NCBI GenBank assembly: GCA_017625395.1
Contig: JAGALD010000065.1
Location: forward strand, 6,356 to 70,355
DNA length: 64,000 bases
Direction of reading: 5' to 3'
From: Bacilli bacterium
GTDB lineage: Bacteria; Bacillota_I; Bacilli_A; RF39; UBA660
Part shown: in pieces, positions 53,742-57,916 of the stretch
How the letters are laid out: the number at the start of each line of letters is the position of its first letter
How positions within the stretch are numbered: position 1 is the stretch's first letter
Notes under the pieces: generated by a model
What the model was told of the DNA's origin: nothing
What the model saw: only the letters and a program-made list of their open reading frames with translations
Databases searched by the model: none
Translations under genes and position numbers: made by a program

Positions 53742-54959
53742 CTACATCTCAACTTTGTATTCATCTACATAGAAAGTTCCATCATTTTTGTTTTTCAATT
53801 CTGTACGTACTACTTGATAAACTTTGTTGTTATCATCATCAAAATATGTATAACTATCTTGAGTAACAACTTCAAAATTATCATAATCAATATTATTATT
53901 TGCTAATTTAACAATACTTTCTGAACTTTGAATACTAACCTTATTATTTAATATGGCATTAACTTGTGTTTTTACTTCAACATCATCATTATTATTCATA
54001 TTATCAAAAATATTTGTAATTTTATTATCACTAACAAAAATTGTATATCCTAGTTTTGTTTTTATATTATCATTTATTACTAATTTCAAATCATATATAA
54101 TTCTACTTTCTTGAATAGTCTTTTCTACTTCATAACTATTTATATCAAAATTTTCATCAATGTTTTCTTTTATCCATGTTTCGATAGATTTAATTATTCT
54201 AGTTTCATTATAATTTGTAACATCAATTTCTACAGAATTGTTTCGATTGTCAATTACTATATTAGACATTGTTTCATAATTTAGAGAAGTTGTTCTTAAT
54301 GGTTGATTCCAGTTTCCATATTGATTATGACTCTTTACACGTGAATCATTATAAGTAAAACTATCAGCATAAGTAACTGCTGCACTTAAATAAAATTCTG
54401 TTCCTGCTTTTGACCAAAAGTTTTTCAACCATGCTGTATGAGAAGGAGCTTCAATCGATGGAATCCATCCAATACTTTTTGCAGCACCTTTAGTTTGAGC
54501 AGTTTTTGTTATATTTGATGTTCCAGAAGCAGTTTGACAACCTGCAAAAACTGCTAATTTAACATTTCCCATATTATAACTACTTAGCCCCACATTTGTT
54601 GACGAATTTGAACCTGTTGTAATATAAAAATCATATCCAGATGTATGATTAGCATCATAAAAATGCATCAAACTACTATTCCCATGTCCACTAAAAAATA
54701 ATATATCACTTTCCATTCTTTTGGTACTACCATTAGTTCCCTTCATCCAAGATATAGTTGGATTCGTATTTGCTTGATAAGTAAATGCTAATGGACCTAA
54801 TCCACTTTGAGCATTAGTTACATCAATCGATGTGTCAATACCACCATAGTCCCTACCTACTAATAAAGCTTGATTACCTGCAGCCAAAACTCCAACAGGT
54901 GATAGCATAAATACTGTTAATAATAATATAGTTGTTAAAATTTTTTTCTTTAATTTCAT
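53742..54959 (-). CDS. Secreted protein with putative clan-CD (caspase/clostripain-like) His-Cys dyad
   Basis: 405 aa. Signal peptide (LLLTVFMLSPVGVLAAG). FFSGHGN followed about 50 aa later by AVFAGCQTASG, which resembles an H-G ... A-C catalytic dyad. C-terminal Asn-rich beta-rich domain. Confidence 0.45.
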   Translation of the reverse strand: MKLKKKILTTILLLTVFMLSPVGVLAAGNQALLVGRDYGGIDTSIDVTNAQSGLGPLAFTYQANTNPTISWMKGTNGSTKRMESDILFFSGHGNSSLMHFYDANHTSGYDFYITTGSNSSTNVGLSSYNMGNVKLAVFAGCQTASGTSNITKTAQTKGAAKSIGWIPSIEAPSHTAWLKNFWSKAGTEFYLSAAVTYADSFTYNDSRVKSHNQYGNWNQPLRTTSLNYETMSNIVIDNRNNSVEIDVTNYNETRIIKSIETWIKENIDENFDINSYEVEKTIQESRIIYDLKLVINDNIKTKLGYTIFVSDNKITNIFDNMNNNDDVEVKTQVNAILNNKVSIQSSESIVKLANNNIDYDNFEVVTQDSYTYFDDDNNKVYQVVRTELKNKNDGTFYVDEYKVEM

Positions 54960-55166
54960 ATGTCCTCCTTATTTTATATTTAAAATAATATAAGATTTTT
55001 AACTTTTAAACGAAAAAATCACCTCACATTTCTATACTTAACTGTACTTTTATAGAACAATATGAGATGATTATATGACGCAAAAGTACAACATAAGTTA
55101 AATTAAATTGTAATACTTCTAACATCTTGTTAACATTTTGTTAACTATATTATAATATATGCTCTG

Positions 55167-55613
55167 CTAATTATCAAGACTATCTAAATAATTTTTATAA
55201 TTAATTGTTTCGTGAATTAAATATATATTGTAATTGTTGATTGCAAGATTAAAACTATCATAGAAATATACATTATATAATCCATACTTTTCTTTATTTT
55301 TAGAATTATTAATCAAGTCATCCAAAGATGTCTCATCAGATAAAATTGATTCTTTCAAATCCCTAACTAATTTCGTATCTTTAAAATCCAATTCAATATA
55401 ATCAACACATACTTTATAATAAGTATAATTGTCATCTTTAAAATATAATTCATTGAATGGTGTACATTCACTTTTAGAATACGCATAATATGAATTTGGT
55501 ATCAATTCAATGTTATTGTCTGTTTTTAATTCGTTTTTATCACTATTGCACCCAGTTAATAATAGAACTCCTACAAATATTATACAAAAATTTTTTATAA
55601 AACTTTTTTTCAT
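55167..55613 (-). CDS. Lipoprotein (hypothetical)
   Basis: Start MKKSF...; lipobox LLTGC within IIFVGVLLLTGCNSDK. About 148 aa. Confidence 0.5.
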   Translation of the reverse strand: MKKSFIKNFCIIFVGVLLLTGCNSDKNELKTDNNIELIPNSYYAYSKSECTPFNELYFKDDNYTYYKVCVDYIELDFKDTKLVRDLKESILSDETSLDDLINNSKNKEKYGLYNVYFYDSFNLAINNYNIYLIHETINYKNYLDSLDN

Positions 55614-55690
55614 TAACGGTTCCTCCAATCAACAATATTTTTTTCACTTAAATATTACCATAAAAATCAACTATTGACAATATCTATAAC

Positions 55691-56713
55691 TTAGTTGAAT
55701 GAGCTTTGTCCAAGACTTCTAGTCCATGCTTCACTATAGCCATTAGTACAATCCACTGATACCCAGTAAAGATAAGGATAATTGTAATTTTTATAGTTAG
55801 TATTAGCAGCAATATAATTCTTTTGAACTTCCGCTTGAGCTCTAGTTAAATTATAATCAGTTACTACCATATAATTACCTGGATAACTACTAGACTCAAT
55901 AATTGAACCTGTCCATCCTGCAGATTGAAAAACCTTTAATAAAGCAGTTGCATTTCCATATTGTCCATGCCCTGTCATAAGTCTGCAATACGATTCAGTT
56001 ATATTTGCATAAAGATTAACATCATAATTAGGCATATTACTTACCCAGCCATTCCAACCATGAAAAGTATGATAAATATCTAGTGAGCTTTGAGCATTTA
56101 AGTTTTCTAACGCATCATTATATCCAACTGATCGTTGAGCCCATAAACTATTATTAACATAATAGTTCACAGTGTAATAATTCTTACTCCAATTTGCAGT
56201 ATAACTTCTATTGCCTACACTATTACTTATAGTAACATTTTTAGTTACTGCACTTAATCCAGTACCAGACCAACCTGTAAAAGTGTAACCAGTTTTAGTT
56301 GGTGTTGGTAGTGTAATTGTACTTTCAACAGTATAACTATTCACTGTACTTGCACTACCACCATCAAGATTATAACTTATTGAATAAGTTGTTGCATTCC
56401 ATTTTGCAGATAAACTTTTATTATTAATATTATCTACATTACTTATACTTGTTGTATAGTTAGTATTATTAGAATCAACATATCCTAAAAACTCATAACC
56501 TAATCTTTGAGGAGTTGGCAATGTTACACTATTATTTTTTACAGTAATTGTGTTATTACCAAAAGTTCCACCATTACCATTTATCTTTAAATTATATTTT
56601 TTAGTAACAAAACTATTAGTTAATGTACTATTTGTATTATAGTAAGCTAATGTTTTATTTAAGGTACAAAATAAAATCGCAATTAATAAAAGAACTATAC
56701 TAAACTTTTTCAT
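55691..56713 (-). CDS. Listeria-Bacteroides-repeat surface protein with SipW-cognate-type N-terminus
   Basis: N-terminus MKKFSIVLLLIAILFCTLNKTLAYYNTNSTLTNSFVTKKY parallels the neighbouring TasA-like protein's GGTLAYFTTSTTFKNIFNTAKY. Repeats LPTP.R.GYEFLGY and LPTPTKTGYTFTGW are Listeria-Bacteroides (Flg_new) repeat signatures. Confidence 0.6.
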   Translation of the reverse strand: MKKFSIVLLLIAILFCTLNKTLAYYNTNSTLTNSFVTKKYNLKINGNGGTFGNNTITVKNNSVTLPTPQRLGYEFLGYVDSNNTNYTTSISNVDNINNKSLSAKWNATTYSISYNLDGGSASTVNSYTVESTITLPTPTKTGYTFTGWSGTGLSAVTKNVTISNSVGNRSYTANWSKNYYTVNYYVNNSLWAQRSVGYNDALENLNAQSSLDIYHTFHGWNGWVSNMPNYDVNLYANITESYCRLMTGHGQYGNATALLKVFQSAGWTGSIIESSSYPGNYMVVTDYNLTRAQAEVQKNYIAANTNYKNYNYPYLYWVSVDCTNGYSEAWTRSLGQSSFN

Positions 56714-57194
56714 ATTTAATACCAACTTTCTTTTTATGATTAACATAATAGTCATAACATAAATCTACTAATAAAATCGCTATTGATATAAACAATAAAT
56801 ATTTATGAGTATAAATAAAATCTGCATATAGTCCTAAATATGGTATGCACCAGTTTGTACCTTTTCCTAACACTCTTGAATTATCAATTATATCAGAGTC
56901 ATAACTTTTATTAGCATCCCCTTTTGTTATGAATCCATCATCTAATTTTTCTACTACTCTGTGTGAAATAATATGATTTCTAAATTTATAAACTAAAATA
57001 TCATCTTTTTTGAAGTTATCAAGATTTTCCTCGTGATAATATAAAAGTCCTCCCACCTGTAAAGTAGGTTCCATGCTACCAGATATTACTACTAGTGGTT
57101 TATGTCCCCAAAATGATGGTATAAAAATCAGTAAATAAATGATAACTAGTACATACAAAATACTAAACATAAAATTTTTTATTTTTATTAACAT
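56700..57194 (-). CDS. sipW: Signal peptidase I, SipW (archaeal/ER-type)
   Basis: Preferred start ATG 57194 (MLIKIKN...) with AAAGGAGAA RBS. HKPLVVISGSMEPTLQVGGL contains the SipW-type SGSMEP catalytic-Ser box. C-terminal TM present. Confidence 0.8.
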   Translation of the reverse strand: MLIKIKNFMFSILYVLVIIYLLIFIPSFWGHKPLVVISGSMEPTLQVGGLLYYHEENLDNFKKDDILVYKFRNHIISHRVVEKLDDGFITKGDANKSYDSDIIDNSRVLGKGTNWCIPYLGLYADFIYTHKYLLFISIAILLVDLCYDYYVNHKKKVGIKYEKV

Positions 57195-57212
57195 AAATTC
57201 TCCTTTCATAAA

Positions 57213-57261
57213 GAATAAGAACTAGAGATATTTCCCTAGTTCTTTTATCTTATATTTTTTT
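57213..57261 (-). terminator. Intra-operon hairpin between the tasA-like gene and sipW
   Basis: Perfect 9-bp stem AAGAACTAG-(10)-CTAGTTCTT at 57217-57244 with U-rich flanks, placed between the tasA-like stop (57260) and the sipW RBS. Confidence 0.4.
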
Positions 57262-57916
57262 ACCATACATTTAATGCTTGGTCATATTGTATTGTATCGA
57301 TTCTTACTGTAAGAGTATATTTAGCATTATCATAACCATTACCAGTAGAACTATAAGTTATAGTTTTTCCATCATCTGATTTTGTCATTGATAAAGTTGC
57401 CATAATATTTTTATTAAATGTAACTCCACTTATAAATGATGTAGATGTTGCATTAGGTTTTAAATTAGTTAGATTTTCTTTTGAACCATAATAATAGTAG
57501 CCATCAGAATTTTTTGTCCAACCAGAATTAAAATTAATAATTGCAGCCACTTGATTACTTGAATCATTTAATGGTAGTTCATTGCCATTTGCATCTACCC
57601 ATTTTTCAGTATAACTTGCACGAACTGCCATGTCTATTGTCCCTTTATTAGTAACTGTAATTTCCTTTTTAGTTGTTGTACCAGGAGTCCAATTATCTGG
57701 ACTTACAAAATCTTCTATGATCTGTGTTTCATATTTAGCAGTATTAAATATATTTTTAAATGTTGTACTTGTAGTGAAGTATGCTAAAGTTCCTCCTATA
57801 ACAGTAAATACACTAATCCCTAAAAATACTAATAATTTTTTCTTATTCTTTTTTTTTATTTCATTTTCATCTCCTTTTAAATCTTTTTCAATATTATTTT
57901 CTTTATTTTTTTTCAT
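57260..57916 (-). CDS. TasA/camelysin (M73)-family secreted protein
   Basis: 218 aa. Lys-rich N-region, TM/signal (LLVFLGISVFTVIGGTLAYFTTS) of the SipW-cognate class (GGT.AYF). Beta-rich mature domain with about 26 Thr among its 218 residues. Confidence 0.65.
   Translation of the reverse strand: MKKNKENNIEKDLKGDENEIKKKNKKKLLVFLGISVFTVIGGTLAYFTTSTTFKNIFNTAKYETQIIEDFVSPDNWTPGTTTKKEITVTNKGTIDMAVRASYTEKWVDANGNELPLNDSSNQVAAIINFNSGWTKNSDGYYYYGSKENLTNLKPNATSTSFISGVTFNKNIMATLSMTKSDDGKTITYSSTGNGYDNAKYTLTVRIDTIQYDQALNVW

Follow-up and report, generated by a model that had tools for sequence, protein, structure and literature searches.

A SipW-linked cassette of the BsaA/TasA fibre family in conjugative elements of gut Bacillota, a candidate system for cell contact

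In a 64-kb stretch of DNA from a Bacilli bacterium (contig JAGALD010000065.1; the whole stretch is called the window here) an integrated conjugative element (ICE) carries three adjacent genes, at 55691-57916, that encode a 218-aa protein of the BsaA/TasA (camelysin) family, a SipW-type signal peptidase and a secreted protein with Listeria-Bacteroides repeats. Our preferred reading, to which we assign a probability of about 0.55, is that this cassette specifies a fibre processed by SipW and assembled by donor-strand exchange, with a terminal adhesin or anchor that resembles TapA, and that the cassette has been recruited by conjugative elements of gut Bacillota for cell contact. The family of each protein was already known and the mechanisms of TapA/TasA and BsaA are published; what appears from the sequences to be new is a distinct clade of the family, strongly conserved, whose three genes move together in conjugative elements as a fixed cassette, together with a Flg_new-repeat accessory protein that looks to be a TapA analogue with modular heads. 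All of the evidence on the cassette is computational.

Results

The five-gene region comprises two units

The initial annotation had reported five open reading frames (ORFs) at 53742-57916, all on the minus strand and beside the relaxosome genes, and had treated them as one system. The placement of the ORFs is correct, and the genes for NikA and the MobP relaxase come directly after them; the single system did not hold up. The region consists of two independent units, of which the first is the three-gene cassette (subunit, SipW and repeat protein) and the second a pair of genes for a lipoprotein and a caspase-fold protein. The coordinates of these and all other features are collected in Table 1.

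The subunit belongs to the TasA/BsaA fibre family

The description of the first cassette protein as tasA-like proved well founded, as the protein passes the curated cut-offs of two models of the TasA/BsaA fibre family, namely TIGR04090 (BsaA family; 124.7 bits, cutoff 60, E = 4.8e-36) and PF12389 (camelysin, Peptidase_M73; 32 bits, cutoff 22.5, E = 1.4e-7, residues 32-196). It also matches TIGR04088, the model of the SipW-type signal peptide, with 20.7 bits (cutoff 19), and with 23.4 bits when the N-terminus is scored alone. A GGAGG ribosome-binding site (RBS) lies 8 nt 5' of the start codon. The protein is laid out as a Lys-rich n-region, an h-region, a predicted SipW cleavage site after Ala45 (GGTLA↓YF) and a beta-rich core. 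In an AlphaFold2 (AF2) model of the subunit, residues 58-218 form beta strands (pLDDT about 66-90) and residues 1-57 are disordered, as would be expected if the strand becomes ordered only in the polymer.

When the family profile was aligned by hhalign with Bacillus subtilis TasA, whose sequence was entered by hand, the resulting alignment (probability 80%, E = 1.5e-5) ran from the signal peptide across the cleavage site into the first core strands. It sets GGTLA45↓Y46F47 of the subunit against GGTWA27↓A28F29, the known cleavage site of TasA, and it places subunit Asn55 at the position of TasA Ala37. In TasA the next subunit is completed by residues 28-38, the donor strand (Bohning 2022).

Among 46 homologues of the subunit A45, Y46, F47, T48, F57 and Y62 are invariant, and N55, E68 and K84 are each at least 90% conserved, also in relatives that are merely 38-62% identical. 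The N55-x-F57 arrangement resembles N35-x-F37 of BsaA. In BsaA an Asn35-Glu56-Lys74 triad forms an intermolecular isopeptide bond; TasA is without the Asn, and the triad occurs in only a subset of the BsaA family (Kivimaki 2025 preprint). Judged by residue conservation, N55, E68 and K84 may constitute a BsaA-like isopeptide lock. Elsewhere in the family the architecture varies: many single-domain relatives carry a conserved Cys pair that the window's clade does not have, and among the proteins P0158-P0300 many representatives of 50% clusters consist of an N-terminal BsaA-like domain and 100-700 further residues, the subunit fold often being fused to additional C-terminal domains.

The element has its own SipW, flanked by exactly two substrates

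The second gene of the cassette starts 65 nt 3' of the subunit stop codon and encodes a 164-aa signal peptidase whose start is also the one used by public gene callers. It scores 90.7 bits against TIGR02228 (archaeal/ER-type signal peptidase I; cutoff 51.85) and 68 bits, below the cutoff of 190, against NF046067, the equivalog model of Bacillus SipW; on these scores it is a peptidase of the same type as Bacillus SipW and not its orthologue. The translation contains a Ser in SGSMEP, a His in SHRV and a hydrophobic C-terminal membrane anchor, the catalytic roles of Ser and His (rather than Ser and Lys) being assumed from the family. Across 43 related loci SipW is 51-90% identical and always lies between the two substrates. 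The earlier proposal of an element-encoded SipW with two cognate substrates is confirmed for the window, where it is flanked by exactly two. One related locus from a metagenome-assembled genome (MAG) has SipW and the repeat protein in a single 424-aa ORF (L050:10632-11906, plus strand) beside a subunit that is 52% identical; a donor-strand-like motif, NTSTSVTNNFKTSDYNVKLYTDGG, begins at about residue 174 of this ORF, directly after the C-terminal anchor of the peptidase. The single ORF reflects either a genuine fusion of SipW with a substrate or a frameshift in the assembly.

The accessory protein shares its N-terminus with the subunit

The start of the repeat protein gene at 56713, on which public gene calls agree, overlaps the sipW stop by 14 nt. 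The protein matches PF09479 (Flg_new) with 60.2 bits (cutoff 27) and TIGR02543 with 46.7 bits (cutoff 20.95), and is built of a SipW-type signal peptide with predicted cleavage after Ala23 (NKTLA↓YYNTNSTLTNSFVTKKYN), Listeria-Bacteroides repeats and a C-terminal domain.

Its N-terminal likeness to the subunit, which had been noticed initially, is genuine and not an effect of composition. Past the predicted cleavage sites, TLA↓YFTTSTTFKNIFNTAKYE of the subunit and TLA↓YYNTNSTLTNSFVTKKYN of the repeat protein are identical at 8 of 18 positions, and the BsaA-family model is matched at its N-terminal end by residues 1-55 of the repeat protein (E = 2.8e-4). Of 42 related loci, 41 encode after SipW a protein that begins its predicted mature part with the same pattern, [AS]↓[YF][FY]xT...F....Y. 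The motifs of repeat protein and subunit share a mean of 7.0 of 18 residues, against 1.8 +/- 1.3 for shuffled sequences, the figure being somewhat inflated by the three positions that served to locate the motif. No third ORF with this N-terminal signature is present in the 64-kb window. A profile restricted to the 22 mature N-terminal residues of the subunits picked up several of the accessory proteins, at best with E = 1e-3, as well as N-termini of distant BsaA-like proteins; its shortness prevents it from scoring the accessory protein of the window. As far as alignment can tell, then, the shared N-terminus exceeds the signal peptide and continues for about 18 residues past the cleavage site, in a part that is aligned with the TasA donor strand.

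The N-terminus of TapA likewise resembles that of TasA, and is thought to give the first strand and to act in nucleation (Bohning 2022; Roske 2023). A scan of the whole NCBIfam library with the 354-aa form of the accessory ORF returned the List_Bact_rpt repeat alone and no TapA homology, and the resemblance to TapA is functional only, consisting of the N-terminal donor-strand mimic and the place next to sipW. Scans of Pfam and NCBIfam found no TasA-like acceptor domain in the repeat protein. With a donor-like strand and without an acceptor domain it would be able to donate a strand and unable to accept one, which is the logic of TapA, and we read it as a terminal partner of the fibre, like TapA, in preference to a second independent substrate.

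The remainder of the accessory protein is modular. BLAST links the first 150 mature residues of 35 distinct full-length accessory proteins into one cluster and leaves their C-terminal 105 aa in five unlinked clusters (13, 9, 8, 3 and 2 members). Pfam gave no family match for any of the five head types, and a homologue search with the head domain alone recovered only seven fragments. A SPOR-like reading of this domain was considered and dropped as it had no Pfam support. By its sequence pattern, a constant strand and stalk with exchangeable heads, the accessory protein looks like a receptor-binding or anchoring tip protein.

A hairpin separates the subunit gene from sipW

The spacer between the subunit gene and sipW contains a terminator-like hairpin with a fold energy of -19.6 kcal/mol (z = -6.1), and a promoter and terminator scan of the region found six terminator-like sites where 0.9 were expected. 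Of 37 distinct related loci, 14 have a spacer at this place that is more stable than shuffled sequences (z < -2), and several of the 14 form clear stems whose sequences differ; strong spacer hairpins with differing stems were seen in L012, L015, L019, L020, L022, L030 and L038. In Clostridium perfringens a terminator is predicted just 3' of bsaA, and both short, abundant transcripts and read-through transcripts are made (Obana 2020). By analogy, these observations suggest that the spacer hairpin is an attenuator or terminator that would yield much subunit and little peptidase and accessory protein.

The cassette travels with conjugative elements

Homologues of the subunit at 63-93% identity form 514 clusters, and at E <= 1e-3 the family at large comprises 3,668 representatives. 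Scanning one genome per species, we compared 78 loci, of which 43 belong to a close clade (subunit at least 50% identical) and 35 are distant (24-44%). The subunit gene is followed by sipW on the same strand in all 43 close-clade loci and the repeat protein comes next in 42, the remaining locus (L033) having a masked stretch. In the distant relatives sipW mostly lies 1-8 kb upstream, and a single weak Flg_new match was seen (L081). Conjugation or sortase/SpaA genes lie within 10 kb of the cassette in 37/43 of the close-clade loci and in 1/35 of the distant ones; when only close-clade loci of at least 12 kb are considered the count is 31 of 34. Conjugation markers were detected by tblastn with a limited set of queries, so that 37/43 is a minimum. 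MAGs of uncultured gut 'Bacilli', 'Clostridia' or 'Tenericutes' make up nearly all of the close clade's hosts.

At least two unrelated type IV secretion system (T4SS) backbones carry the cassette. The first, which is that of the window, has NikA, the MobP relaxase, DUF3801, a type IV coupling protein (T4CP) of CD1115 type and TrbL_2 (for example L023, L028, L030, L031, L034, L041, L042 and L052); the second has a T4SS_pilin protein, a 556-aa protein, a VirB4 protein, an M23 peptidase and a T4CP of 766 aa. A further arrangement, in L012-L014, comprises ParA/ParB, an adhesin, a sortase, the trio and an SNF2 protein. The trio most similar to that of the window (81%, 90% and 76% identity) is found in L015, a locus with the second backbone whose T4CP is only 26% identical. 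The similarity of the trio and dissimilarity of the T4CP argue that the cassette has moved between backbones. It also sits among backbone genes: in the window it lies between the primase/HU genes and nikA-relaxase, and in L030, L031 and L034 between nikA and the relaxase gene.

In loci with the second backbone the cassette mostly comes directly after the genes for an LPXTG SpaA-domain protein and a sortase, and SpaA-domain protein, sortase and cassette together look like a surface or adhesion block. BsaA/TasA genes are in general often near sortase, LPXTG and SpaA genes (Kivimaki 2025). None of the window's ORFs of at least 100 aa has an LPXTG-like sorting signal. The small protein of the second backbone that weakly matches Pfam T4SS_pilin (PF18895) adjoins the genes of the 556-aa protein and VirB4; it is encoded a few genes downstream of the cassette in most such loci and upstream in L009 (L009:608-985), with equivalents in L020, L025-L029, L037, L040, L044 and L056.

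Pairs in which sipW precedes tasA, annotated 'signal peptidase I' and 'TasA family protein', also occur on plasmids (L097:8872-10099, plasmid pWX3 of L. paracasei; L098:8884-10070, E. faecium NZ_CP040905.1). They stand directly after large secreted glycoside hydrolases (GH92 and GH53), and their TasA N-terminus is of the type GGTYA↓WFTAS. We considered whether these pairs follow the same design and rejected the idea, the GH92 and GH53 hydrolases having ordinary signal peptides and not SipW-type ones.

Full-text searches of the literature found no paper in which SipW, TasA or camelysin genes are connected with conjugative elements, and literature searches found no report of a SipW/TasA-like cassette in the CTn4/Tn1549-type ICE family. 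The text of Kivimaki 2025 contains no word that starts with 'conjug' or 'mobile'.

The element and its genomic setting

The window has a G+C content of about 27%. Its first part, at about 1-23 kb, holds housekeeping genes (murA, prfA, argS, a class A penicillin-binding protein, dnaB and an M23/LysM protein), and from about 23.9 kb to beyond 64 kb all long ORFs are on the minus strand and part of the integrated conjugative element. Membership of the cassette in an ICE follows from the relaxase, NikA, T4CP, VirB4 and two serine recombinases lying in one block beside chromosomal genes; further element genes encode DUF3801, HU, a DUF3991-Toprim protein and TrbL_2. The right end of the element is beyond the window. 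Plasmid homologues of the window's T4CP are at most 72% identical and are annotated 'VirD4-like, CD1115 family', and on the strength of these homologues we place the backbone with the CTn4/Tn1549-type elements of Clostridia. Identical copies of the window's housekeeping and module proteins are in public records of an NCBI MAG of a 'Bacilli bacterium' (MBO5376151 to MBO5376215), in which the two module proteins looked up, subunit and caspase-like protein, carry the annotation 'hypothetical protein'. An identical subunit protein is encoded on at least 24 metagenome or MAG contigs, with the same gene order at the places shown.

Table 1. Coordinates of the features in the window.
Feature	Coordinates	Strand	Remarks
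Two tandem large serine recombinases	23946-27087	minus	chromosome-proximal end of the element
FtsX/MacB-type ABC permease and histidine kinase	34502-38975	minus	probably cargo
VirB4	42610-44925	minus	
T4CP	48063-49886	minus	
MobP relaxase	51890-53221	minus	
NikA	53331-53663	minus	
Terminator-like hairpin	53699-53719	minus	9-bp stem, then CTTTTTT; after the caspase-like gene, upstream of nikA-relaxase
Secreted caspase-fold (clan CD, CHAT-like) protein, 405 aa	53742-54959	minus	ordinary signal peptide; FSGHG and FAGCQT motifs
Lipoprotein, 148 aa	55167-55613	minus	lipobox LLTGC; longest ORF start 55628; first gene of the separate two-gene unit
Accessory/terminal protein, 340 aa	55691-56713	minus	longest ORF start 56755 (354 aa); PF09479, TIGR02543
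C-terminal 'head' domain of the accessory protein (last 105 aa)	55694-56008	minus	one of five unrelated head types
SipW-type (ER/archaeal-type) signal peptidase I, 164 aa	56700-57194	minus	longest ORF start 57209; RBS favours 57194
Terminator-like hairpin	57217-57244	minus	12-bp stem, T-rich tail; between the subunit gene and sipW
BsaA/TasA (camelysin)-family major fibre subunit, 218 aa	57260-57916	minus	TIGR04090, PF12389, TIGR04088
Predicted donor strand and linker of the subunit, Tyr46-Glu63	57728-57781	minus	YFTTSTTFKNIFNTAKYE; aligns to TasA residues 28-45; near-invariant Asn55-x-Phe57
SNF2-helicase protein, start only	61228-63969	minus	extends past the window; full 2,377 aa seen in L001

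The lipoprotein and caspase-fold pair

The assignment of the 405-aa protein of the second unit as caspase-like, with an H-G / A-C dyad, was right. Its AF2 model (pLDDT 88, pTM 0.86) has a caspase-like domain at about residues 30-220, which contains His92 and Cys141, followed by two alpha/beta C-terminal domains, so that the C-terminal half is made of two helix-plus-sheet modules. Foldseek matched the model to the SAVED-CHAT structure 8tl0 (E = 2.6e-5, probability 1.0), MALT1, separase, Craspase and caspase-4, and neither His92 nor Cys141 varies among 26 homologues. At E <= 0.01 the protein matched no family of Pfam, that of CHAT among them, or of NCBIfam, and a profile search of PDB sequences gave a weak CHAT alignment across both motifs (E = 0.4). 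The family is small, with 31 clusters, and one homologue (P0151) carries SLH wall-binding domains. The window's lipoprotein is 34.5% identical over 142 aa (E = 6e-19) to a 142-aa lipoprotein that precedes a caspase-like homologue in a mobilizable element with Mob_Pre and a serine recombinase (L093:7364-9197); the trio is not present there, nor is it present where another caspase-like homologue stands alone among chromosomal housekeeping genes.

Discussion

How the cassette may work

We propose that both outer genes of the cassette produce pre-proteins with a signal peptide of the SipW-dependent type, and that the cut made by the element's SipW would fall behind GGTLA45 in the subunit and behind NKTLA23 in the accessory protein. 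Once free, the N-terminal strand of the subunit would enter the beta-sandwich of the next subunit by donor-strand exchange, as in TasA and BsaA, to give a stable filament, which Asn55, Glu68 and Lys84 could possibly lock by a BsaA-like isopeptide bond. The 340-aa repeat protein, having no acceptor domain, would fit only the fibre end with an open groove, and would serve as both TapA-like nucleator and terminal piece. Its Listeria-Bacteroides repeats would form a stalk and its exchangeable C-terminal domain would bind either the wall of the producer, as an anchor, or another cell, as a tip adhesin. Adhesion by such a fibre, from cell to cell or from cell to surface, would gather donor and recipient and stabilise mating aggregates.

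In B. subtilis matrix production suffices to raise transfer of ICEBs1, and in mixed matings of eps and tasA mutants transfer is restored only if the donor makes TasA (Lecuyer 2018). The initial annotation had suggested an element-encoded surface fibre or adhesin dedicated to cell-cell contact. The strong tie of the close clade to conjugative elements (37/43 against 1/35) makes a fibre or adhesin for cell contact the best reading of the three-gene cassette, and this part of the suggestion survives; its extension to the lipoprotein and caspase-like pair does not. To judge by the published structure of TasA, a pilus-like conduit for DNA is unlikely for this class of solid fibre. A bolder form of the proposal, which we regard as speculative and rather doubtful, is that the cassette is a Gram-positive functional counterpart of the mating pilus: an ICE-encoded donor-strand-exchange filament, possibly isopeptide-locked, that reaches out from the donor and has a single terminal adhesin whose swappable head chooses recipients.

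Several observations count against our reading or some part of it. The TasA sequence used in the hhalign comparison was entered by hand. A Foldseek search of the PDB with the subunit model gave no significant match, TasA (5of1) appearing at rank 22 with a probability of 0.51 and a TM score of 0.26, and HMM profile searches of PDB sequences, with shallow and with broader alignments, reached no TasA or other fibre protein. With respect to the putative lock, the Asn and Glu are 13 residues apart in the subunit and 21 in BsaA, and the mapping of the triad onto BsaA N35, E56 and K74 is tentative; moreover, position 10 of the accessory proteins is Ser more often than Asn, which makes an isopeptide lock to the accessory protein doubtful. 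The N-termini of subunit and accessory protein show no locus-specific covariation (7.0 against 7.0 identities, p = 0.56), and the shared motif is a family-wide constraint rather than a pair-specific one, so that heads and subunits could be mixed. Only uncultured MAGs and metagenome contigs carry the close clade, and none of the carriers is among the plasmids of PLSDB, where neither 50-62 kb of the window (megablast) nor the subunit (tblastn) had a match. Finally, linkage to conjugation genes is no proof of a role in transfer.

Alternative explanations

The most credible alternative, which we think less likely than our own reading, is that the cassette is cargo of benefit to the host, a portable biofilm or colonisation factor for adhesion to mucus, food particles or other cells, with an indirect effect on transfer or none. 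It would accord with the role of chromosomal TasA and BsaA as biofilm matrix proteins, with the metabolic contexts (GH92, GH53) of the plasmid-borne sipW-tasA pairs of L. paracasei pWX3 and the E. faecium plasmid, and with the variable heads, which fit varied environmental ligands; terminator-like hairpins that flank parts of the region also point to transcription partly apart from the relaxase operon. Against it, the cassette sits among backbone genes and not in cargo regions (in the window and in L030, L031 and L034), it is kept in unrelated backbones and better conserved than the T4CP, and its close clade is nearly confined to conjugative contexts. This position and near-restriction favour a role linked to transfer over host-benefit cargo, and the two readings are not mutually exclusive. 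A more sweeping proposal would retain all five genes as one system in which the caspase-like protein, with the lipoprotein as partner, processes, polymerises or anchors the fibre as a sortase-independent transpeptidase. The five genes are indeed adjacent and in one orientation, the caspase fold and its invariant His/Cys dyad are real, and some clan CD enzymes are known in general to be transpeptidases. The pair is, however, missing from all 43 other close-clade trio loci, including L023, L028 and L052, the closest relatives with the same backbone, in which nikA comes directly after the repeat protein; caspase-like homologues occur without the trio, as described above; and BsaA and TasA polymerise without such an enzyme. 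We therefore consider the proposal very improbable and do not uphold the initial idea of a processing or anchoring protease for the fibre. From its distribution, the lipoprotein and caspase-like pair looks like cargo of two genes that was inserted here, and may consist of a secreted protease and its lipoprotein partner.

Two further alternatives concern single proteins of the cassette. SipW might be a general signal peptidase of the element that serves the T4SS or other exported ICE proteins, its linkage to two neighbours being incidental, and type I signal peptidases do exist on plasmids, for example SipP on plasmids of B. subtilis natto. Yet SipW is always encoded between two proteins with the SipW-type N-terminus, no other ORF of the window carries that signature, and the SipW of B. 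subtilis is a dedicated enzyme with two major substrates, TasA and TapA (via Obana 2020); a general role is very improbable. Least probable of all is that the 218-aa protein is a metalloprotease of the camelysin type (Peptidase_M73) and not a fibre subunit. The idea draws on the match to PF12389, which Pfam names 'Camelysin metallo-endopeptidase'; the match to the BsaA fibre family is stronger, and the M73 label probably stems from CalY having been misidentified as a peptidase (Kivimaki 2025).

Significance

How Gram-positive donors find and hold their recipients is poorly understood, with few adhesins, such as PrgB, having been studied, and we know of no conjugative pilus in Gram-positive donors. 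For the abundant and mostly uncultured Bacillota of the gut, the cassette described here offers a specific candidate for mating-pair formation that can be put to the test. If our reading is correct, it would extend the donor-strand-exchange fibres of TasA and BsaA from the chromosomal biofilm matrix to mobile elements and would provide a second independent case of the TapA principle, whereby an accessory protein joins the fibre by means of a donor-strand mimic. If the heads capture recipients, recipient range would be a modular and exchangeable trait of the conjugative elements of gut Bacillota, and heads that set partner specificity could help to predict routes of gene flow in the gut, those of resistance genes included.

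Comparison with known systems

The closest parallel is the tapA-sipW-tasA operon of B. subtilis. Both systems have a dedicated ER-type SipW beside its two substrates and a major subunit of the TasA/camelysin family with an aligning cleavage site, and in both the accessory protein is of an unrelated fold and has a mature N-terminus that mimics the donor strand of the subunit. They differ in gene order (subunit, sipW, accessory in the cassette; tapA, sipW, tasA in Bacillus), in the accessory protein itself, which is a Flg_new-repeat protein with swappable heads in the one and TapA in the other, and in location, the cassette being on conjugative elements and the Bacillus operon on the chromosome. 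In addition, the cassette subunit has an Asn where TasA has Ala37, and the cassette SipW falls below the cut-off of the Bacillus SipW equivalog.

With the sipW-bsaA-bsaB-bsaC operon of C. perfringens the cassette shares a subunit that passes TIGR04090, a terminator beside the subunit gene and conserved candidate N-E-K residues. Secretion and polymerisation of BsaA depend on SipW, and BsaA polymers are very stable (Obana 2020). The bsa operon differs from the cassette in being a chromosomal biofilm operon regulated by BsaR/S with sipW as its first gene, and its accessory proteins are the paralogue BsaB and the vWA protein BsaC, whereas that of the cassette is a Flg_new protein. The bsa operon is not known to have any connection with conjugation.

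The 405-aa protein of the neighbouring unit resembles CHAT and other caspase-like proteins of clan CD in its caspase fold and its His-Gly ... Ala-Cys dyad, and is unlike them in being secreted, stand-alone and paired with a small lipoprotein.

The adhesins of Gram-positive elements, such as the aggregation substance PrgB of pCF10 and the LPXTG adhesins of ICEs, are surface structures thought to aid contact between donor and recipient. The cassette resembles them as a putative surface structure encoded by the element, and in most related loci it is placed directly after an LPXTG SpaA protein and a sortase. There is no sequence relation between the two, and the cassette proteins are not sortase substrates. 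Whereas PrgB and the LPXTG adhesins are each a single wall-anchored adhesin, the product of the cassette is predicted to be a non-covalent strand-exchange filament, possibly locked by isopeptide bonds.

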